Source of the DNA: a virus
Taxonomy: Duplodnaviria > Caudoviricetes
Reading direction: 5' to 3' (one strand)
Virus record (IMG/VR): IMGVR_UViG_3300049007_000012
Location: 1-52,348 of that record
DNA length: 52,348 nucleotides
Shown: in pieces, positions 1,456 to 46,203 of the stretch
How positions within the stretch are numbered: the stretch's first letter is position 1
Layout: each line of letters starts with the position of its first letter
Program-made: the position numbers and the translations under genes
Notes under the pieces: model-generated
What the model was told of the DNA's origin: nothing
The model's input: the letters and a program-made list of their open reading frames with translations, nothing else
Database searches by the model: none

Positions 1456-1548
1456 CTCCCACTCGAACGTTCGATTGGGGACAGAATCCTAGGCCTTTCC
1501 GTTTCCGGACGGGCCCTCCGTGCGGCTAGAGTGACTCGTCCTTGCGAT

Positions 1549-1624
1549 GCCCCCATCGTCTAGTGGCCTAGGACACCACCCTCTCAAGGTGGCGACACGG
1601 GTTCGAATCCCGTTGGGGGTGCCA
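1549..1624 (+). tRNA. tRNA-Glu (anticodon CTC), host; prophage integration target
   Basis: 76-nt cloverleaf GCCCCCA...TGGGGGT-G-CCA, anticodon arm CCACC-CTCTCAA-GGTGG, T-loop TTCGAAT. Confidence 0.97.
1581..1624 (+). repeat. attL core (3' half of tRNA-Glu)
   Basis: CTCTCAAGGTGGCGACACGGGTTCGAATCCCGTTGGGGGTGCCA identical to 44138-44181. Confidence 0.95.
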
Positions 1625-1641
1625 GAACAACCAGCAGGTCA

Positions 1642-1666
1642 GAGGCCCCGGCAAGCCCGGGGCCTC
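1642..1666 (+). terminator. GC-rich hairpin after tRNA, probable terminator
   Basis: GAGGCCCCGG-CAAGC-CCGGGGCCTC inverted repeat; no U-tract. Confidence 0.55.
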
Positions 1667-1682
1667 GCCGCGTCCGGGCGGG

Positions 1683-1704
1683 CGTGGAGTCCGCCGTGGA
1701 GTCC
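1683..1704 (+). repeat. Putative integrase arm-type sites
   Basis: CGTGGAGTCC twice (1683, 1695); same 10-mer near attR. Confidence 0.7.
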
Positions 1705-1732
1705 ACGGCCCGGCGGGCCTACCGTGGCCGGC

Positions 1733-3052
1733 ATGGCGGGAGCGGAGCAACTGCCCTCGGGGCGCTGGCGACTGATCGTGCACAGGGGCCGGGACCCCCT
1801 CACCGGCAAGAAGATGTACGACCGCCAGGTGGTCGACGCCACCGGGAAGCGGGACGCCCAGCGGCAGGCCGACGAGTGGGAGGTGGACCTCCGCCGCGGC
1901 GAGGTCACCCACAAGGCCGGCACGTTCGCCCAGCTCACTGAGCAGTGGATCGAGACCCGGGGCCGCCGCTGGTCCCCCACCACCCAGCGCGAGAACCCCC
2001 GCATCGTCGACCGCTACCTCACCAAGTCGCTCGGCGAGCTCGACGTCTCCGACATCGGCACCCACACCATCGACCGGTTGTACGGCGCGCTGCTCGAGCG
2101 GGGCGGGAAGTGCCGCAACCGGCCGTGCCCCCGCCAGCCGTGCAAGGACCACGGACCCCGGTGCGAGCGCAAGAAGTGCACCCGGCCGCCGTGCAAGGCG
2201 CACGAGGGGAAGTGCGCCGGCCTGGTGCCATGCGACCGCGCGCCGTGCCCCCACGGCGGGCCGCTCACCCCGGCGACCGTGCAACGCATCCACACCGTGG
2301 TCCGCTCGGCGCTCGAGCAGGCGGTCAAGTGGGGGTGGATCAGGCGCAACCCGGCGGAGCACGCCGAGCGCGGCGAGGTCATCGAGCAAGAGGTCGACCC
2401 GCCGGCGGCTCCCGACGTGGTGCTGCTGCTCGCCGAGGCCGAGGCGATCGACAAGCGGCTCGCCGTCTACCTGCTGGTGGCGATCGAGGCGGGCGCCCGC
2501 CGGGGCGCGGTGCACGCGCTGCGCTGGTCGCACCTCGACCTCGCCACCGGCACCGCCCGGTTCCCGAACGTGGTCGTGATCGGACCCAAGGGCACCGGGG
2601 TGGTCGAGCGGCCGGCCACGAAGTCGAAGCGCACCGCCCGCAACCCCATCGCTATCTCGCCGTGGCTGGTCGCCGCGCTGGTGGCCCACCATGACGACAT
2701 GTTCGAGCGGGCCCGGGCGGCCGACGGCGTGCTGCCCTCGGACGCCCTGGTGTTCTCCGACGACCCGCTCGGCGCCCGCCCGTGGCGCCCGGACTCGACG
2801 AGCCGGAAGTTCCGGACGCTCCGGTGGGCCGCTGGCCTGGACGAGACCCGCCTGCACGACCTGCGCCACTTCATGGCCACCGTGCTCCTCGGGAACCAGA
2901 TCGACCCGAAGGTCGTCGCCGGTCGGGGCGGCTGGTCGAAGGTGGCCACGATGCTCGACCGGTACGCGCACGTCATCCCAGCGAACGACCGGGCCGCCGC
3001 CGACGTGATGGGCCGAGCACTCCGGCCCGCCGAGGATCAGCCCTCGGGGTAG
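1733..3052 (+). CDS. int: Tyrosine integrase with Cys/His-rich insert
   Basis: GARRG (R), HDLRH, GW, YAH catalytic residues; N-terminal arm-binding SGRWRL...DPLTGK; start at ATG 1733, 7 nt after TACCGT (-10-like). Confidence 0.95.
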   Translation: MAGAEQLPSGRWRLIVHRGRDPLTGKKMYDRQVVDATGKRDAQRQADEWEVDLRRGEVTHKAGTFAQLTEQWIETRGRRWSPTTQRENPRIVDRYLTKSLGELDVSDIGTHTIDRLYGALLERGGKCRNRPCPRQPCKDHGPRCERKKCTRPPCKAHEGKCAGLVPCDRAPCPHGGPLTPATVQRIHTVVRSALEQAVKWGWIRRNPAEHAERGEVIEQEVDPPAAPDVVLLLAEAEAIDKRLAVYLLVAIEAGARRGAVHALRWSHLDLATGTARFPNVVVIGPKGTGVVERPATKSKRTARNPIAISPWLVAALVAHHDDMFERARAADGVLPSDALVFSDDPLGARPWRPDSTSRKFRTLRWAAGLDETRLHDLRHFMATVLLGNQIDPKVVAGRGGWSKVATMLDRYAHVIPANDRAAADVMGRALRPAEDQPSG

Positions 3053-20974: not shown

Positions 20975-21048
20975 GTCGGGGTGGAGCAGTTGGTCAGCTC
21001 GCCGGTTTCATAGGCCGGAGGTCGCAGGTTCAAATCCTGCCCCCGCCA
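20975..21048 (+). tRNA. Phage tRNA with CAT anticodon, initiator(fMet)-like body but atypical
   Basis: D arm GAGC/GCTC, anticodon arm CCGGT-TTCATAG-GCCGG, T arm GCAGG-TTCAAAT-CCTGC; 2:71 mismatch; followed by CCT not CCA. Confidence 0.85.
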
Positions 21049-21059
21049 CCTACCCGCAT

Positions 21060-23300: not shown

Positions 23301-23584
23301 GGCCGGTCCCGATCCCCGACGACCTCGTGCCCGCAGGGTGCAAGCGGTTCATCATCTCCGCCCCCGACGGCGACCTGACGAGCGACCAGATCCGCCCCGT
23401 CGAGGCCGTGGCCGGCGTCGTCGACGGTCAGGTGCTCATGTCCATGCTCCTGGCCATGGAGCCCGGCGACCTCGACCGGCTCCGCGCCATGGAGACCGAG
23501 CTGGGCGTGGCCGGCGTGTGGCTCACGATGATGACGAACCAGATCCCGGCGTTCTCGGTCGACATCGCCGACGCCGGAGCCTGA
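23297..23584 (+). CDS. Hypothetical protein (paralog 2)
   Basis: Starts VRPVPIPD; GTGA coupling. Confidence 0.7.
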   Translation: MRPVPIPDDLVPAGCKRFIISAPDGDLTSDQIRPVEAVAGVVDGQVLMSMLLAMEPGDLDRLRAMETELGVAGVWLTMMTNQIPAFSVDIADAGA

Positions 23585-23587
23585 CCC

Positions 23588-24673
23588 GTGCCGGCCACGC
23601 CGGACCCCGACCTCGCCCTCCGCCTGGCCAAGACGACCGCCGACATCTACGGCGACGCCGCCGCCCAGATGCTCGACCTCGTCGCGCGCCGCCTCGCCAC
23701 CGGCATCGACCGGCCCGGCTGGGCCGAGGCCAAGCTCGTCGAGCAGATCCGCCTACGCGGCGACCTGCAGGCGATCGTCGACCGGCTCGCCGTGCTCGGC
23801 CCCGACGCCATCGGCGAAGCCCTGGCCGACGCATGGTCCGCCGGCCTCGACGACGCGCTCGAGGACCTGACCGAAGGCGAGGCCCGCGGCGGGTTCGGGC
23901 GGACCAACACGAGGGCGGTCGACGCCCTCGTCACAGAGACCGTCACCGCCGTGCAGTCCACGCACGGCCAGATCATCCGCTCCACCATGGACGCCTACCG
24001 CGCCGTGATCGCCGAGACCAGCGCGCCCGGCGTCGTCACCGGCACCGCCACCCGCCGCCAGGCCGCACAGCGCGCCCTCGACCGCTTCGCAGTCGAGGGG
24101 ATCACCGGGTTCCGCGACCGCGCGGGGCGCCGGTGGGAGCTGGAGTCCTACACCGAGATGGCCGTCCGCACCTCGGCCGGGCGGGCGCAGGTGGCCGGGA
24201 CGCTCGACCGGTTCGTCATCGCGGGCCGCGACCTCGTCATCGTCTCCGACCACGGCCAAGAGTGCCGGGTGTGCCGCCCCTGGGAGCGCAGGGTCCTCTC
24301 CATCTCCGGGCGCACACCGAAGGGCACCGTGCTGTCCGACGGCGTCCGCGTGGCCGGCACGGTCGCCGAGGCCCGAGGCGACGGGCTGCTCCACGCCAAC
24401 TGCCGCCACCGACTCACGGCCTACACCCCCGGCCTGACCCGCCCCGGCCGCCCCCAGTCCGACCCCGAAGGCGACCAGGCCCGCCAGCGGCAGCGGGCGC
24501 TCGAGCGGCAGGTGCGGGCGTGGCGCCGCCGCGAGGCCACCGCGCTCGACGACCCGGCACGGGCACGAGCGCGGACGGGCCTGCGGGACGCACGGGCGCG
24601 GCTACGGGCACACATCGCCGAGCACGACCTCCAGCGTCAGCCCGCCCGGGAGCAGGTCGGCCGGGCCCGTTGA
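23588..24673 (+). CDS. Phage minor capsid protein (min_cap2/MuF-related)
   Basis: DRAGRRWELESYTEMAVRT, CRVCRPW, GLLHANCRH. Confidence 0.88.
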   Translation: MPATPDPDLALRLAKTTADIYGDAAAQMLDLVARRLATGIDRPGWAEAKLVEQIRLRGDLQAIVDRLAVLGPDAIGEALADAWSAGLDDALEDLTEGEARGGFGRTNTRAVDALVTETVTAVQSTHGQIIRSTMDAYRAVIAETSAPGVVTGTATRRQAAQRALDRFAVEGITGFRDRAGRRWELESYTEMAVRTSAGRAQVAGTLDRFVIAGRDLVIVSDHGQECRVCRPWERRVLSISGRTPKGTVLSDGVRVAGTVAEARGDGLLHANCRHRLTAYTPGLTRPGRPQSDPEGDQARQRQRALERQVRAWRRREATALDDPARARARTGLRDARARLRAHIAEHDLQRQPAREQVGRAR

Positions 24674-24692
24674 CCTACCCGGTCGGGACGAT
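24673..24692 (+). promoter_or_regulatory. Late promoter motif copy (scaffold/capsid)
   Basis: ACCTACCCG-GTCGG-GACGAT-7 nt-ATG(24700). Confidence 0.7.
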
Positions 24693-24699
24693 GACCCCG

Positions 24700-25437
24700 A
24701 TGCGAATCGACACCGCCCCCGGGGGCAACGATGACGATCTGACGTTCGACACGGTGCTGGTCGACGGCCGGCGCCTGGTCCACCTGTGGTCCGACGGCAC
24801 CGTGCTGCCCGTGGTCCGCGGCGGCGAGGGCCCCAACGATCCTCCCGCGGATCCGCCCGCTGACCCCCCGGCCGACCCGCCCGCCGATCCCCCCGCGGAT
24901 CCGCCCGCCGACCAGGCCAAGGGCGGCAAGGGCGACCAGCCCGTCAACATGACCCAGGCCGAGCTCGACGACATGATCGAGAAGCGCCTCGCCAAGGCCA
25001 AGGGCAGCTGGGAGTCCGACTCCAAGAAGGCGGCCGACCGGGCCAAGCTCGACGAGACCGAGCGGTTGAAGGTCGAGAAGGCCGACGCCGAGAAGGCCGC
25101 CACCGCAGCGACCGAGGCCGCCGCCTCGCGCATCGTCCGCTCCGACGCCCGCATCGCCGCCGTCGAGGCCAAGGTCAAGGCCGACCGCGCCGTCGCGTTC
25201 GTGAAGCTGCTCGACCTCTCCGACGTGACGGTCAACGACGCCGGCGACGCCGACGCCAAGGCACTCAAGAAGGCCATCGACGCCGGCCTCAAGGACTACC
25301 CCGAGTTCAAGGCCGCCGACGCCGGCAACGGCAACGGCAGGGGCGGCTCGAGCGGCGGGGACATGAACGGCGGCGCCGGCCAGGGCCGCGCCACCAAGAT
25401 CGAAGACGCCGTGGCGGCCCGCCTCAAGGCCGGCTGA
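24700..25437 (+). CDS. Capsid scaffolding protein
   Basis: TQAELDDMIEKRLAK, coiled coil, upstream of MCP. Confidence 0.85.
   Translation: MRIDTAPGGNDDDLTFDTVLVDGRRLVHLWSDGTVLPVVRGGEGPNDPPADPPADPPADPPADPPADPPADQAKGGKGDQPVNMTQAELDDMIEKRLAKAKGSWESDSKKAADRAKLDETERLKVEKADAEKAATAATEAAASRIVRSDARIAAVEAKVKADRAVAFVKLLDLSDVTVNDAGDADAKALKKAIDAGLKDYPEFKAADAGNGNGRGGSSGGDMNGGAGQGRATKIEDAVAARLKAG
24838..24912 (+). repeat. In-frame 12-nt repeat encoding (DPPA)x6
   Basis: DPPADPPADPPADPPADPPADPPAD with synonymous variation. Confidence 0.9.
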
Positions 25438-25447
25438 CCACAGCACC

Positions 25448-25568
25448 CCTCCGACGGGAGGCGAAACACGGGCCCCACGGGGCAGGGGACAGCGCCGGCA
25501 CCCACCGGCCTCCGACGGGAGAGAAACGGGGCCCTCCGGGCCAGGGGAGAACGCTCGCACCCACGAGC
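25448..25568 (+). ncRNA. Tandem ~61-nt structured RNA-like leader of the capsid gene
   Basis: Two units each with three hairpins; conserved loops and linkers, varying stems. Confidence 0.55.
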
Positions 25569-25594
25569 AGGACACCAGACGCACGGAGGCAACC

Positions 25595-26902
25595 ATGCCC
25601 GTCACCCTTGCCCAGGCCGCCCTCAACACGCAGGACGACCTCGACGCCCTCATCATCGACGAGTTCCGCAAGAGCTCGGCGATCCTCGACGCCCTCCCGT
25701 TCCACGACACCGTCAACCCCATGGGCGGCGGGACGACCCTGACGTACGGCTACCACCGGCTGGTCACCCAGCGGTCGGCCGCCTTCCGTCCGATCAACAG
25801 CGAGTACACGGCGGAGGAGGTGACCAAGGAGCGGTTCACGGTCGACCTCAAGCCCCTCGGCGGCTCGTTCCGCATCGATCGTGTGCTCAACGACATCGCC
25901 CGCTCGAGCGAGACGGCACTGCAGCTCCAGCAGCTCATCAAGGCCACCCGCACCCGGTTCCAGGACGAGGTCATCAACGGTGACGTGGCCGTCGACGCCA
26001 ACGGTTTCGACGGTCTCGACAAGGCCCTGACCGGCTCGACGACCGAGGTCAACGCCGCCGGCACCGACGCCCGCGCGGACTGGGTCGACCTGGACGCCGC
26101 GACCTACACGTCGCAGCGGGCCTACGACCTGCTCGACGAGCTGTTCGGTGTGCTCGACGGGCCCCCGTCGCTGCTCATCTCCAACGACCTGGTGGCGGCC
26201 AAGCTGCGGGCGATCGCCCGCCGGGCCAACGTCTACGTCGAGCGCCCGGTCGAGGGCCTGCGCGACAGCTTCGGCAACCCGATCAACCGGCAGATGGTCG
26301 GCAACGCCGTGCTGGTCGACGCCGGCGAGAAGGCCGGCAGCTCGCAGCGGATCGTCCCCGTCTACGACCCCGACAACTCGTCGTACACGATCACGCACTC
26401 GACCGGCACCGACGGCGGCACCTTCCGGGTGCGGGTCGACGTCAACGGCGACGTGGACGAGACCGACGAGCTGGCGTGGAACATCTCCACGGCCGACCTC
26501 GACACCGCGCTCGAGGGCCTGTCCAACGTCCCCGCCGGTGCCGTCACGGTGACGGGCTCGGCCGGCGTCAACTACACCGTCACGTTCGCCGGTGGCCTGG
26601 CCGGCCTCGACGTCGTGCTGTCCGTGGTCGACGACGAGCTGCTGGACACTCCGGTGCTCGAGCCCACCGTCGTGGCCGAGGCCGCCACGACCGGCGGCTA
26701 CTCCGACCTGTACACGGTGCGGATCGACATGGCCGACGGGTTCCACGGCGTCTCGACCACGGGCTCGCTGGTGCGCACCTGGCTGCCCGACTTCACCACG
26801 TCCGGCGCGGTCAAGGACGGCGAGTGCGAGATGGGCCCCGTGGCCGTCGCGCTCAAGTCGACCAAGGCCGCCGCCGTGCTCCGCCGGATCAAGGTCCGCT
26901 GA
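25595..26902 (+). CDS. Major capsid protein with inserted domain
   Basis: SD GGAGG; AFRPINSEY, LGGSFRIDR, FDGL, KAAAVLR; position after scaffold. Confidence 0.9.
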   Translation: MPVTLAQAALNTQDDLDALIIDEFRKSSAILDALPFHDTVNPMGGGTTLTYGYHRLVTQRSAAFRPINSEYTAEEVTKERFTVDLKPLGGSFRIDRVLNDIARSSETALQLQQLIKATRTRFQDEVINGDVAVDANGFDGLDKALTGSTTEVNAAGTDARADWVDLDAATYTSQRAYDLLDELFGVLDGPPSLLISNDLVAAKLRAIARRANVYVERPVEGLRDSFGNPINRQMVGNAVLVDAGEKAGSSQRIVPVYDPDNSSYTITHSTGTDGGTFRVRVDVNGDVDETDELAWNISTADLDTALEGLSNVPAGAVTVTGSAGVNYTVTFAGGLAGLDVVLSVVDDELLDTPVLEPTVVAEAATTGGYSDLYTVRIDMADGFHGVSTTGSLVRTWLPDFTTSGAVKDGECEMGPVAVALKSTKAAAVLRRIKVR

Positions 26903-39837: not shown

Positions 39838-41565
39838 GTGGCCCTCGCCAACACCCCGAACGCCCAGCTGCTCCGCAACGCGATCGGAGCGCCGCCGTTC
39901 TTCTCGTGGTGCTGCTGGACGCGGCTCGACCAGGAGCGCGGCGAGGAGTTCACCATCGTCCGCTACGCCGCCGGCAACAGCGTCGGCGGCGGCGGCATGC
40001 AGCCCACCCTCCTCGAAGACAATCAGCTCATCATCTTCGAGGCCAAGGGCGACTTCCCGGACATCTTGGGCGGCGCCGGGCCGACCTGGGACCTGGGCGA
40101 CTGGTGGTTCCTCGGCCTCACCACGATCCTGGCCGACATCGCCGACAACGTGGAGGTCTACTGGGGCCGCCGCGGCGACAGCAGCCTGACGCAGCTCACC
40201 TGCTCATACGACGGCGCCTACCAGCTCCAGAACTGGTACGTCGGCGGCCGGCCCGGCAACGACGGCCAGGACGGCGGCTACCGCCTCCACGGCTCCGTCG
40301 CCCACGACCGCATGTGGCACAGCACCACCCTGACCCCGACGGAGATGCTGGCCGAGTTCCTGTCCCCGACGCCGGTCAAGGCCGGGGCGTGGTCCACCTG
40401 GGCGATGGCCGACAGCGCCACCGCCGGCAATGACACCTCGGGCAACTCCCGGCCGCTCACCGCCCAGGCGGGCACGGGCACGATCACCACGACCGACGGC
40501 CCGTTCGATGGCGGCGGGATCGCCGAGCCGATCGCCCCCGCCACGCAGGCCACCCTCGCCCAGCCCCTCGGCGCCCGGAAGCGACTCGCCCTCGGCACCG
40601 TGGTGGTCGGCTCAGCCGCCAGCGAGCTGACCGCAGCCAAGCGGCTCGCCCTCGGCCCGGCGACCGCCGGCGCCACCCCTGGCACCCTGGCGGCCGGGAA
40701 GCGCCTCGCCCTCGGCGCCGTCACGGCCGGATCGGCCGCCGGTCAGCTCGAGGCGGCGAAGCGCCGTGCGCTCGGCCCGGTCACTGCGGGCGCCACCGCG
40801 GGCGCGCTGGCCGCCCGGAAGCGGCGCGCCCTCGGGACCGCGGCCACCGGCACGGCCGCCGGGCCGACCGGTGCGGCCAAGGCCCGTGCCCTCGCACCGG
40901 TCACCGCGCCGGCCGCCGCCCAGCCGCTCGGGTCGGCGAAGCGGCGCGCGCTCGGCACCGTGGCCGTGGCCGCCGTCGCTGGGGCGCTGGGCCGGGCTAA
41001 GCGTCTCGCCCTCGGCTCGGTCACCGCGGGCACGCACGCGGGCCCGCTCGGCCAGGAGGGCGCCACCACGCAGCCCCTCGGCTCGGTCACGCAGCACACC
41101 GTCGCCCGGCCCCTGGGCGCCCGCAAGAGGCGGCCCCTCGGCACCGCCACCACCGGGACCGGCGCCGGCCCGCTCGGCCGCCGCAAGGCCCGCCCCCTGG
41201 GCACGGCGACAGCGGCCACGTCCGCCAGGCCCGCCGGCCGACGCAAGGCCCGAGGGATCGGCACCGTCACCGTCTCGACGACCGCCGGCACTGCCGGGCG
41301 CCGGAAGGCCCGGTCGCTCGGCTCCGTCGTCACCGGCACGGTGGCCGGCCTGGTCGCCACCGTCCGCCGCCGCAAGGCGATCGGCACCGTCACCGTGCTG
41401 ACGACCGGCCGACCGATCGGGGCCAGCACGCCGCCGGTCGTCACCGACGCCATCGCCACACCGCTCGCCCGCCGCATCGCCGCCAGCCCCCTCACCCGCC
41501 GCAACGCAGGGACGCCGCTGGCCCGCCGCATCGCCGCCACCCGCCTCCGGAGGACACCGCCGTGA
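39838..41565 (+). CDS. Fibre-like protein: N-terminal LamG-like domain plus basic 20-aa repeats
   Basis: GDWWFLGLT, HGSVAHDRMW..LTPTE; repeats xxKRxALGxVT. Confidence 0.7.
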   Translation: MALANTPNAQLLRNAIGAPPFFSWCCWTRLDQERGEEFTIVRYAAGNSVGGGGMQPTLLEDNQLIIFEAKGDFPDILGGAGPTWDLGDWWFLGLTTILADIADNVEVYWGRRGDSSLTQLTCSYDGAYQLQNWYVGGRPGNDGQDGGYRLHGSVAHDRMWHSTTLTPTEMLAEFLSPTPVKAGAWSTWAMADSATAGNDTSGNSRPLTAQAGTGTITTTDGPFDGGGIAEPIAPATQATLAQPLGARKRLALGTVVVGSAASELTAAKRLALGPATAGATPGTLAAGKRLALGAVTAGSAAGQLEAAKRRALGPVTAGATAGALAARKRRALGTAATGTAAGPTGAAKARALAPVTAPAAAQPLGSAKRRALGTVAVAAVAGALGRAKRLALGSVTAGTHAGPLGQEGATTQPLGSVTQHTVARPLGARKRRPLGTATTGTGAGPLGRRKARPLGTATAATSARPAGRRKARGIGTVTVSTTAGTAGRRKARSLGSVVTGTVAGLVATVRRRKAIGTVTVLTTGRPIGASTPPVVTDAIATPLARRIAASPLTRRNAGTPLARRIAATRLRRTPP

Positions 41566-44137: not shown

Positions 44138-44181
44138 CTCTCAAGGTGGCGACACGGGTTCGAATCCCGTTGGGGGTGCCA
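44138..44181 (+). repeat. attR core (duplicated tRNA-Glu 3' half)
   Basis: 44-bp identity with 1581-1624. Confidence 0.95.
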
Positions 44182-46000
44182 CGAACAAGGGAACGGGTGG
44201 CCCTTGTGGTGCTACGGCCTGGTCGATGGTCGTGCGGATCGCCGGGATGCGGTCTGCTCGGACGGTCACGCGCACGATGACCGAGTGGCTGGCTGCCTGG
44301 TAGCGCAGTTCGAGGTTGAAGCTGTCGTAGAGGTCGCGCAGCAGTTGCTCGGGCAGGTCGTCGAGGTCCGTTGGCCTGAGCGTCGGTAGCTCGTCGAGGA
44401 GGGTGGGGTCGTCGGGAGGGCCTTCTTGGCGCGTCGTCAGGGCAGCGAGCTGTTCGGTCTTCGTCTTGTGGTCTCGGGCGAGGCGGACGTAGCGGTCTCC
44501 GAGGCGGCTTCGGAGGTCGCGGTCGATCTCCTCGTCGCCGGTCGACTCGTGCATTTCGATCTGGTCGAGCACGTTCTGGCGCCGCTTGTCGAGGTCTGCC
44601 AACTCGGCGTGCAAACGTGCGACCACGGCGTCCGGCACGGGCGGCGAGTCGTCATCCGCGGGGGCGCGGAGTGCGGCTTCTCGCCGTGGGCCGAGGACGT
44701 GCTCGGCGAAGAACTGGTTGGTGAGGCCGAACAGGTCGTCTTCGCGGATCCACATGGTCTTGGGGTGGGTCTCGTACCAGGCGCGGCGCTGGCTGTGGTG
44801 GCGCATGTCGGGCCGGCAGACGTAGTACGAGGTACTGCGACGGGCCTTCCCGTACATCCGCCGGTCGCAGAGCTCGCAGAACACGTACCCGCGGAGGGCG
44901 TAGCTGCGCTGGGCCTGCCGGTGGCTGTTGGGGCCGGATCCGTTGCGGGATCCCTGCCGGGCTCGACCCATCTCGCTGACCGTCTGGTAGTGCTCCTTGG
45001 TCACTAGCGGTTCGTGGGTGGGACGCGGCGACCAGACCCACTGGCTCGGCGGGTTGACCTTGCCGCCCCTCGAGCTGGTGGCACGCCGGTTCCACACCAT
45101 GTAGCCGGTGTGCTTGGGGTTCACCAGGACCTCCCGCACCGCCGAGCCGCTCCATCGACGCAGCGCCCGCTCGGGGTCCACCGGGGTCGGGGGTGGGTGA
45201 GCCTCGGGATCGGCGTTGAGGATGTCGGCGATCGTGCGGTAGCCGAGGCGTTGCACCGCTCGGAGGCTGAAGATCCGGGTCACCGTCGGTCCCTCGACGG
45301 GATGAGGGACGAGACGAGACTTGGTGCGGCCTTCGGCGCGCTTGGCGGCGACCGGATGTGGGATCTTCTCGGCGCGGTAGCCGTAGCAGGGCTTGCCGAT
45401 GTTCCAGCCTTGCTCCGTGTGCTCCGCCGTGCCGTCCCAGGACAGCTCCAGCATCTGGAGCACATACCACTCGGCGACTGCCTGCTTGACCCGCCGGGTG
45501 AGGATCGGGGTCGCTCGCTTGGGAGCCCGCCCTCCACGCGGCCGGGCGAGGTCGGGGAGGGGCTCGTCGGCGGCCAGGAGCATGACCCCTGCCTGTTCGA
45601 GCTCGTGTTCGACCTTGGTGCCGAAGTAGGTGCGCCGGGCGACGCGCTCGACGGATTCGCAGACGACGGCGACGAACCGGCGGTCGGGACGCTGGGCCTC
45701 GGCGAGCAGGTCCTGGATGCCGCCGTCCCGGGGGATGCGGATGTCGAATGCCTCGTGGGCGTGTCCCTTGCCGCGTTCTGCGAGGTCCATGCGCCCGGAC
45801 TCGACGTCGTAGAAGTGGCCGACGATGGCATAGGGGGCCGGCAGAGCGTCCCTGCAGCTCCGCAGCTGCCGTGGCAACGACAGCGTCGGGTCCTGCTGGT
45901 CTTCGTCCGACGTTCGCCCCCACCAGGCCACCGGGATCTGACCGGCGGCCTCGATCGCGGTCGTGACCTTCTCGTCGGCGTCCTGCCAGGGAAACGTCAC
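44141..46000 (-). CDS. Large serine recombinase
   Basis: GRTS catalytic motif, SG..R, ERVARR, PCYGY, CELC...YYVC zinc ribbon, coiled coil; GTG 46000 coupled to upstream ORF. Confidence 0.93.
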   Translation of the reverse strand: MTFPWQDADEKVTTAIEAAGQIPVAWWGRTSDEDQQDPTLSLPRQLRSCRDALPAPYAIVGHFYDVESGRMDLAERGKGHAHEAFDIRIPRDGGIQDLLAEAQRPDRRFVAVVCESVERVARRTYFGTKVEHELEQAGVMLLAADEPLPDLARPRGGRAPKRATPILTRRVKQAVAEWYVLQMLELSWDGTAEHTEQGWNIGKPCYGYRAEKIPHPVAAKRAEGRTKSRLVPHPVEGPTVTRIFSLRAVQRLGYRTIADILNADPEAHPPPTPVDPERALRRWSGSAVREVLVNPKHTGYMVWNRRATSSRGGKVNPPSQWVWSPRPTHEPLVTKEHYQTVSEMGRARQGSRNGSGPNSHRQAQRSYALRGYVFCELCDRRMYGKARRSTSYYVCRPDMRHHSQRRAWYETHPKTMWIREDDLFGLTNQFFAEHVLGPRREAALRAPADDDSPPVPDAVVARLHAELADLDKRRQNVLDQIEMHESTGDEEIDRDLRSRLGDRYVRLARDHKTKTEQLAALTTRQEGPPDDPTLLDELPTLRPTDLDDLPEQLLRDLYDSFNLELRYQAASHSVIVRVTVRADRIPAIRTTIDQAVAPQGPPVPLFVAPPTGFEPVSPP

Positions 46001-46203
46001 GTGCGCCCCATGCGCTCCTGCCGTTGTAGCCACTGGATGATCTCCTTGATCGTGGCGTTCTGGCGGGCCTCAAGTTCGTCGCCTTCCGCCCCGGCCGCCG
46101 GGGTGAACTCGATGCGAGCGACCCGCAGGCGCTCGCGGCGAACTCCCGCCCGGCCGCCCTCAGCTGCGTCGGCATCCGGGAGCGTCTGACGCTGGCCGGT
46201 CAC
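45997..46203 (-). CDS. Small protein coupled to the serine recombinase
   Basis: GTGA overlap with recombinase start. Confidence 0.6.
   Translation of the reverse strand: MTGQRQTLPDADAAEGGRAGVRRERLRVARIEFTPAAGAEGDELEARQNATIKEIIQWLQRQERMGRT

Follow-up and report, generated by a model that had tools for sequence, protein, structure and literature searches.

Intercistronic stabilisers and processing sites, such as the puf hairpins of Rhodobacter capsulatus, REP elements and 5′ stem-loops, are GC-rich hairpins between differently expressed cistrons (PMC7509114). An element of similar appearance lies in the IMG/VR virus record IMGVR_UViG_3300049007_000012, a stretch of 52,348 b that we call the window and to whose full length all window positions refer. 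It consists of two three-hairpin RNA units within the 157-nt non-coding intercistronic gap (25438..25594, + strand) between the stop codon of the head scaffolding protein gene and the start codon of the major capsid protein (MCP) gene. Like the stabilisers, it is accompanied by neither promoter nor terminator, and single-stranded A-rich linkers run between its hairpins. In contrast to them, it keeps the sequence of its loops and linkers from phage to very different phage, and it brings together two non-identical three-hairpin units, a likely pseudoknot and a sub-module that is found at a ribosome binding site. These features are neither needed for nor known from simple stabiliser hairpins.

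The SAS and ESAS repeats of Cluster K mycobacteriophages are a second point of comparison; their function is given as unknown and a role in translation is proposed (PMC3203893). According to the same source, SAS is a 13-bp sequence, GGGATAGGAGCCC, located 3–7 bp before the start codons of non-structural genes only, with 11–19 copies per genome, and the inverted repeats of ESAS do not keep RNA pairing (PMC3203893). These repeats resemble the present element in being actinophage-specific and strand-specific and in lying a few bases upstream of start codons, where they overlap the ribosome binding site (PMC3203893). The first hairpin and its GAAAC linker in leaders of the Phistory and Pitbull type, described below, occupy the same kind of place as SAS. 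However, the element differs in sequence from SAS/ESAS, is confined to a single locus in each genome, the window included, precedes head genes and has covarying stems, and membership in that group was rejected on these grounds.

The STAB-SD and related 5′ stabilisers, known from Bacillus cryIIIA and the aprE leader, consist of a Shine–Dalgarno-like purine run without a start codon next to a stem-loop; such a leader is complementary to the 3′ end of 16S rRNA and binds 30S subunits. The gap contains no start codon, and in one group of loci (group B, below) ribosome binding relies on the G-run behind GAAAC, but here the complementarity to the anti-Shine–Dalgarno sequence is interrupted, the G-run is paired in hairpin 2, extra conserved parts are present and the carriers are actinobacterial phages. 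Small hairpins with conserved loops, sometimes in pairs, also occur in leaders as boxB/nut, put RNA and guanidine-II (mini-ykkC), where they are bound by protein, RNA polymerase or ligand. The present hairpins differ in having a C-rich 5′ arm and a GACG loop, in stem polarity, in standing among mid-operon late genes rather than after early promoters, and in having no Rfam match; the guanidine-II and boxB readings were rejected on sequence. No description of such an element was found in the literature covered, which excluded supplementary files and subscription journals. The RNA family is new and rare, and its general kind is known.

The two-unit array in the scaffold–MCP gap

A sequence-only reading of the window had described two tandem three-hairpin units with conserved loops and linkers, and the sequence at 25438–25594 is exactly as it had been read. 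The limits of unit 1 (61 nt, 25448..25508, + strand) and unit 2 (60 nt, 25509..25568, + strand) come from the sequence, covariance model R1, pair counts and RNAalifold. Each unit contains hairpin 1 with a 4–5-bp stem and a GACG loop, then GAAAC, hairpin 2 with a variable loop, a G-rich linker and hairpin 3 with a C-rich loop. In unit 1, hairpin 1 spans 25448–61 (GACG loop at 25453–56) and is followed by the single-stranded GAAAC at 25463–67, hairpin 2 at 25472–83, the AGGGGA linker at 25484–89 and hairpin 3, with a CACCCA loop, at 25495–25508. The corresponding parts of unit 2 are hairpin 1 at 25509–22, GAAAC at 25523–27, hairpin 2 at 25530–42, AGGGGA at 25543–48 and hairpin 3, again with a CACCCA loop, at 25553–68. 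Tandem Repeats Finder places the repeat at 25448–25564 (period 59, 2.0 copies, 81% matches, score 157), and the offset between units by reading of the sequence is 61. The pattern CCGACGGG-N3-4-GAAAY has two matches in the 52,348 b of the window, both of them in the gap, with 0 expected from 100 shuffles.

The gap is composed of 61 C, 55 G, 37 A and 4 T, and ATG, GTG and TTG are all absent from its 157 nt. In a GC3 frame plot of 20.8–30.1 kb, the only 150-nt bins without a coding frame are two, one at this gap and one at the gap between the terminase and portal genes. Downstream of unit 2 follows a C/A-rich spacer with no predicted structure (25569..25594, + strand), which contains the MCP Shine–Dalgarno sequence GGAGG at 25585–89; the context of this sequence is similar in homologous loci (ACGGAGG).

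The array is conserved in other loci with compensatory changes

Homologues were collected with a strand-specific pattern for hairpin 1, GAAAC and GGG, which gave 94 stretches in viral contigs, and with a second pattern, which gave 51 in metagenome contigs. Eight of these 51 match model R1 at E ≤ 0.01, and at least six of the eight duplicate or closely resemble arrays known from viral contigs; the remaining metagenome matches are mostly chance-like matches in coding sequence. Arrays between a scaffold gene and an MCP gene define group A, with 14 distinct viral or metagenomic loci including the window. Full or near-full arrays are present in eight of them (the window, L017, L069, L085, L095, L130, L122 and L074), and mini-arrays, in which hairpin 1 and GAAAC are repeated two to three times, in the other six (L002, L078, L089, L113, L140 and L161). 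By PHROG searches, the scaffolds of group A belong to phrog_2303 and the MCPs to two families, phrog_212, as in the window, and phrog_267. The orientation of the array is always sense relative to the head genes. Matches outside group A and the group B loci described below have a coding-like context and poor stems, and we attribute them to chance.

Among 54 loci encoding relatives of the window MCP (44 viral contigs and 10 genome contigs), the scaffold–MCP gap is short or unrelated in 51, and a long gap with the motifs is present in three, L002 and the pair L017/L018. None of the named MCP relatives SV1, ToastyFinz, REQ3 and GMA1 carries the element. BLAST, which is weak for short elements, found no full array in 50,697 named phage records (short matches, E ≥ 2), and the nearest named relatives of the second-family MCP in tblastn are at most 48% identical.

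Five full arrays were aligned with MAFFT without fitting to a structure (alignment A4). This alignment is the source of covariance model R1, which was searched against the collected loci only and matches the window once, at 25448–25568, with 107.1 bits. Such a model from the scaffold–MCP gaps of related phages had been proposed together with the sequence-only reading; the arrays fitted to it are conserved and their pairs compensate. RNAalifold on the five arrays of A4 returned the same 28 pairs in six hairpins, 11 of them with compensatory change. Alignment A5, which was fitted to the model and holds 10 arrays, 9 of them distinct, has 95.8% of its 239 pair cells paired compared to a shuffled mean of 80.7%, and 0 of 500 shuffles reach the observed value, although A5 is structure-fitted, so that these shuffle statistics overstate independence. 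Sliding the partners by 1–3 columns lowered the paired fraction to 30–59%. Both sides have changed in 15 of the 28 pairs, and compensatory change is found in all six helices. Among single-pattern matches, stem positions 3 and 4 of hairpin 1 are paired in 23/23 distinct head-gene instances, with four pair types, compared to 40/70 and 22/70 in 70 other matches of the same pattern that served as control. RNAalifold on A4 and this control are free of the structure-fitting bias of A5. The observation is far beyond chance and, as judged by comparison of sequences, the structure is conserved with compensatory changes. These data support well the selection on RNA structure that had been proposed from the window, now seen as conservation and compensatory change in homologous gaps of other phages.

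The arrays are 118, 121, 123, 126 and 142 nt long, and these differences are not multiples of three, which argues against coding. There are seven G–U cells and two A–C cells, an excess that slightly favours the sense strand; together with the constant orientation to the head genes, it points to a sense RNA. Across loci, unit 1 carries GAAAC-AC and a hairpin 3 loop of mostly 7 nt, and in unit 2 GAAAC is followed directly by G and the loop is CACCCA. The units are not equivalent, and the pair is therefore old and conserved as a whole. The earlier description as a tandem element is corrected in this respect: at the level of the family, what is conserved is one array of ~120 nt with non-identical units and not a recent tandem duplication. 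Conserved structure, compensatory change and a fixed position and orientation relative to a gene, by which structured cis-regulatory RNAs are generally recognised, are all found here.

A further interaction is suggested between the G-rich linker and the loop of hairpin 3, which could pair as a small pseudoknot. In unit 1 (25485..25503, + strand), GGG at 25485–87 would pair with CCC at 25501–03 in the hairpin 3 loop, and in unit 2 (+ strand) the candidate partners are 25544–46 and 25560–62. Linker and loop change together across loci, with GGG/CCC in most arrays, GGCG/CGCC in L095, GGC/GCC in L017 and GAG/CUC in L069 and L074. With three pairs per unit, 83.3% of 48 cells are paired compared to 26–57% with the partners slid, and both sides have changed in 3 of the 6 pairs (4 cells). 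The pseudoknot register does not fit two arrays in which the linker is AGCGGA and the loop CACCA.

Other observations concern head-gene loci. In all five mini-array loci examined for it (L089:7677-8648, − strand; L113:643-1602; L161:3656-4612; L078:663-2075; and L140, with a GTG start after the array), the MCP frame has a conserved hydrophobic N-terminal extension of 35–50 aa. The extension resembles a transmembrane helix, is in frame with the capsid domain, the PHROG matches beginning at residues 34–52, and accompanies both MCP families. A different element occupies the same place in a further set of loci with MCP relatives (L006-L015, L035, L047-L049, L053 and L055; viral contigs and Chloroflexia or Anaerolineaceae MAGs), where, ~40 nt ahead of MCP, a single conserved hairpin of 7–8 bp with a 4-nt loop (e.g. 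GAAG) is followed by AGGAG. Rhodococcus phage REQ3 has three small GCC-GAAY-GGC hairpins in the gap that precedes the scaffold gene (L150:700-845), and Gordonia phage GMA1 has three small CCC-GCAT-GGG hairpins in the corresponding gap (L151:780-868). Repeated lineage-specific tetraloop hairpins in the leaders of actinophage head genes may be a wider theme.

Hairpin 1 and GAAAC as a portable module

Group B comprises ~35 loci with 21 distinct leaders, in which a single hairpin 1 with GAAAC stands directly before the scaffold gene. By PHROG searches, the scaffolds of this group belong to phrog_3760/233 and the MCPs to phrog_10; both families differ from those of group A, and the element thus crosses head-gene families. 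In 21/21 distinct non-chance leaders, the G-run after GAAAC is located 3–8 nt before the scaffold start codon, and it is the only Shine–Dalgarno-like sequence in the leader. Two named cultivable phages carry the module, Gordonia phage Phistory, with one pattern match in 53 kb, and Arthrobacter phage Pitbull, in which an inner stem pair of hairpin 1 is changed on both sides. Hairpin 1 with GAAAC is a portable module. The setting proposed for the cis-regulatory element, the gap between scaffold and MCP, is right for the array, but hairpin 1 and GAAAC also occur alone at scaffold ribosome binding sites elsewhere.

The scaffold leaders of group B (Phistory, Pitbull and ~35 viral contigs) have a conserved AGACTTCC box and two hairpins upstream of the module (L062:4896-5030, − strand; L205:870-955; L206:680-767; L204:500-571). 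Further downstream lies a segment complementary to the loop of the second upstream hairpin, and the two clearly covary, with four variants of the pairing: CGGUC/GACCG, CGGCA/UGCCG, CGGCC/GGCCG and CGGCU/AGCCG. In Mycobacteriophage Che9d, the upstream part of the leader is present and hairpin 1 is absent.

Search for known families and signals

An Infernal scan against Rfam, suggested at the outset, was run, and no Rfam 15 family matches the element. The E-value scan of window positions 24900–26100 gave five weak matches (E 0.66–7.1), none of them inside 25438–25594, the gathering-threshold scan of eight related loci gave 0 matches, and in the L062 leader the E-value scan turned up a single snoRNA match at chance level. 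As the array recurs with compensating changes in other phages and no catalogued RNA family matches, it is probably an undescribed control element for head-gene expression. Between 20500 and 30500 there is no sense-strand intrinsic terminator; terminator-like sites number two in total, compared to 1.5 expected from shuffles, and one of them is on the minus strand at 25542–25530. A scan of the same region with the E. coli-type consensus found 0 sigma-70-like promoter sites, and actinobacterial or phage-specific promoters may differ from that consensus.

Several specific identities were tried and rejected. The hammerhead core consists of CUGANGA and GAAA flanking stem II with an NUH cleavage site; here there is no CUGANGA before hairpin 1, no U after hairpin 2 and no Rfam match. 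A switch in which CCUCC of the hairpin 1 5′ arm pairs with the MCP Shine–Dalgarno sequence is possible in the window and is not conserved in homologues. A host repeat family or CRISPR-repeat mimic was looked for with one exact pattern in 401 genomes of the class that holds Actinomadura terrae. The pattern occurs in 5/401 genomes (six single, coding-like matches), which is the level of the reversed-pattern control (four matches in three genomes), and this identity was also rejected.

Post-transcriptional control of MCP as the favoured reading

We favour, with moderate confidence, the reading that the array is a cis-acting intercistronic element of the sense-strand mRNA that sets MCP expression after transcription, either by processing and stability or through a bound factor. 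The sequence-only reading had likewise placed a cis-acting RNA structure between scaffold and MCP, and this agrees with the conserved compensating pairs, the constant sense orientation and the absence of a promoter, a sense terminator and a start codon. Of the candidate functions listed there, namely setting of the scaffold:capsid stoichiometry, protein binding, processing and antitermination, nothing points to the last. In the proposed mechanism, the late polycistronic mRNA would fold into this structure after the scaffold stop and ahead of the site where ribosomes bind for MCP, and the structure would uncouple MCP expression from that of the upstream genes in cis and after transcription. Its GC-rich hairpins could act as exonuclease barriers, to PNPase on the upstream fragment and to RNase J on the downstream fragment, and GAAAC, as the only exposed A-rich segment, could let an RNase E-type endonuclease enter or cleave or could be where a sequence-specific factor docks. 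The MCP message would thereby become stable, and its strong Shine–Dalgarno sequence would be free. The strict conservation of the GACG loop and GAAAC suggests a specific partner or tertiary contact beyond the hairpins alone.

Multiple hairpins and 5′ stem-loops stabilise mRNA, as in the puf operon, and the degradosome of M. tuberculosis includes RNase E, RNase J and PNPase (PMC7509114). Mycobacterial RNase E cuts single-stranded RNA 5′ of cytidines, with the motif RN-cut-CNU (PMC10641625), and GAAAC offers a purine-N-cut-C in an exposed linker. In 2 of the 14 group A loci a tRNA-Met (CAT) lies between the scaffold stop and the array (L017:701-772 and L078:466-540); tRNA processing is expected to cut there, and the MCP message would then begin with the array.

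Several points weigh against this reading. The mycobacterial RNase E motif, whose bearing depends on the host, has a U at +3 that is missing from GAAAC. Exonuclease barriers need no conserved loops, and a specific binding site or a tertiary fold would better account for the near-invariance of GACG and GAAAC. Close MCP relatives do without the element, with gaps of 9–50 nt in 51/54 loci and of 9–51 nt in SV1, ToastyFinz, REQ3 and GMA1. The distinct full arrays number only nine, of related sequence, and A5 carries the fitting bias given above. The sequencing runs that contain the window amount to one DNA run from a soil metagenome, from which the record may derive, with no RNA run listed. Finally, the folding energies of the window are no better than those of shuffles, with z-scores of −0.64 (+ strand) and +1.05 (− strand) for the whole gap, −1.04 for unit 1, −0.06 for unit 2 and 0.01 for both units, and single-sequence minimum-energy folds fail to recover all six hairpins. 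In sequence this GC-rich, folding energy is uninformative either way; the support for the structure comes from the comparison with other loci and not from single-sequence folding energy.

In tailed phages, the means by which capsid protein comes to be made in large excess over the other products of one late operon have been worked out for only a few models, and scarcely for any actinophage. The element offers a concrete, mutable target for studying late post-transcriptional control in actinobacterial phages, a value that rests on the covariation, the absence from Rfam, the occurrence with different capsid families and the presence of the core module in the cultivable phages Phistory and Pitbull. 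It is also a candidate part for expression tuning in the engineering of Streptomyces or Mycobacterium.

Alternative explanations

The conserved unpaired bases would also be explained by a sequence-specific operator or switch, in which hairpin 1 with GAAAC is bound by a phage or host RNA-binding protein, or the pseudoknotted units are tandem aptamers, and translation of the head genes is turned up or down. Variation is found in the stems and not in the loops and linkers, GACG is retained as the loop in 8/9 units that were found by their adjacency to a pattern match and not by the pattern, and the module stands 3–8 nt upstream of the scaffold start in 21/21 group B leaders. Tandem units, a pseudoknot and conserved unpaired bases are moreover typical of aptamers. 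However, no candidate binding protein stands out in the PHROG annotation of the window, the flanking scaffold and MCP families differ between the groups, which makes autoregulation by either unlikely, pairing with the MCP Shine–Dalgarno sequence offers no conserved alternative, and no Rfam riboswitch matches. The conserved GACG and GAAAC and the use at a ribosome binding site are what give this explanation its weight, and we regard it as doubtful. A related proposal, which we put forward as a tentative possibility, is that hairpin 1 with GAAAC is the portable site of a trans-acting factor, a protein or a ligand on the pseudoknotted units, that switches on the translation or stability of head messages late in actinobacterial infection; phages of the Phistory and Pitbull types would have one copy of the site, at the scaffold ribosome binding site, and others would have multi-copy arrays before MCP. 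If so, it would represent an undescribed late post-transcriptional control system common to unrelated actinophage head modules. The same placement bears on ribosome docking, by which GAAAC and the G-run would act as a Shine–Dalgarno-like sequence without a start codon, and a bound 30S subunit would protect the mRNA or feed the MCP start, like Bacillus STAB-SD. GAAAC with GGGG resembles the extended Shine–Dalgarno sequence, GAAAGGAGG, the GAAAC-G-run serves as the ribosome binding site in group B and the window gap has no start codon. This explanation is improbable, since the conserved C, together with the AC that follows it in unit 1, breaks the anti-Shine–Dalgarno pairing, the G-run would be hidden from ribosomes as the 5′ arm of hairpin 2, and the GACG loop, hairpin 3 and the pseudoknot are left unexplained.

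Three further explanations fare worse. That the array acts at the level of DNA or transcription, as repeated sites for a DNA-binding protein, as a partial terminator or attenuator between scaffold and MCP or as an antisense terminator, draws on the hairpins being inverted repeats and on the minus strand, where hairpin 2 of unit 2 with the complement of GAAAC behind it scores as terminator-like; DNA-binding proteins were also what the authors preferred in the case of the ESAS repeats of Cluster K mycobacteriophages (PMC3203893). Here the half-sites change in sequence and their pairing persists, the reverse of what protein-binding palindromes show, the loops lack symmetry and are specific to one strand, the sense strand has no T-run (4 T in 157 nt), a terminator before the most abundant virion protein would be counter-productive, and the two terminator-like sites match the number expected from shuffles; we consider this explanation very unlikely. 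Slightly less likely again is a decoy RNA that imitates either a CRISPR repeat, as a hairpin with a 3′ handle ending in GAAAC, or a repeated type III antitoxin RNA, and that would be produced in large amounts late in infection to titrate a host defence nuclease. The layout, with short structured repeats in tandem and an A-rich site left exposed, would suit such a decoy, a hairpin followed by GAAAC resembles the way in which type I-C and type III CRISPR repeats end on their 3′ side, and phages are known to carry repeat mimics. Against this, the pattern is no host repeat family, the position is fixed before head genes, with the module merged with the ribosome binding site in group B, the units have diverged yet are conserved as a pair rather than being near-identical copies, and the PHROG annotation of the window places no toxin or cas gene nearby. 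The explanation to which we give the least credence is an undescribed self-cleaving ribozyme, which would sever the late transcript at the scaffold–MCP gap. The unpaired nucleotides that are conserved, the tandem copies, the pseudoknot and the location between two phage cistrons would suit it, known small ribozymes being common in such contexts, but no Rfam ribozyme matches, the CUGANGA of the hammerhead core is absent beside hairpin 1, and the mini-arrays keep hairpin 1 and GAAAC alone, which is too small for a known catalytic fold.

Gene context and other features of the window

The window has a high G+C content and a gene layout like that of a temperate siphovirus, with integrase, regulators, methyltransferases, large terminase, portal, MuF-like minor head protein, scaffold, MCP, tail genes, tape measure and endolysin, and we regard the virus as actinophage-like. 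The head scaffolding protein gene (24691..25437, + strand) was assigned by phrog_2303 and other scaffold families, which match the C-terminal 230 aa of the open reading frame at 23338–25437. Its start was taken as the first in-frame ATG (MTPMRIDT...), its stop is the TGA at 25435–37, and coding is supported by GC3 in frame 0 across 24700–25449. The MCP gene (25595..26902, + strand; 435 aa) matches phrog_212, major head protein, with E 4.5e-53, and relatives are annotated as major capsid protein in the Streptomyces phages SV1 and ToastyFinz and in others. The window MCP is ~100 aa longer than many of its relatives (~325 aa). The extra part, residues ~265–342, matches phrog_5042 and, in the L069 homologue, major-tail-protein and tail-sheath families, which suggests an inserted Ig-like or decoration domain.

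A tRNA-Met is located at 20975–21050, between the terminase and portal genes. The scaffold–MCP gap had been described as the longest in the structural operon, which is correct among gaps without a gene, but the 227-nt terminase–portal gap with this tRNA inside is longer. Downstream of the lysis genes, at 40565–41252 and 41454–41547, there are long, imperfect and very GC-rich tandem repeats with periods of 120 and 60 (2.6–3.3 copies) and 27. Two genes are integrase-like, one matching phrog_1 at 1547–3052 beside a tRNA-Glu (1549–1624) and the other matching phrog_95 at 44141–46033 (− strand). The record beyond ~39.8 kb may include host flank or a second mobile element.

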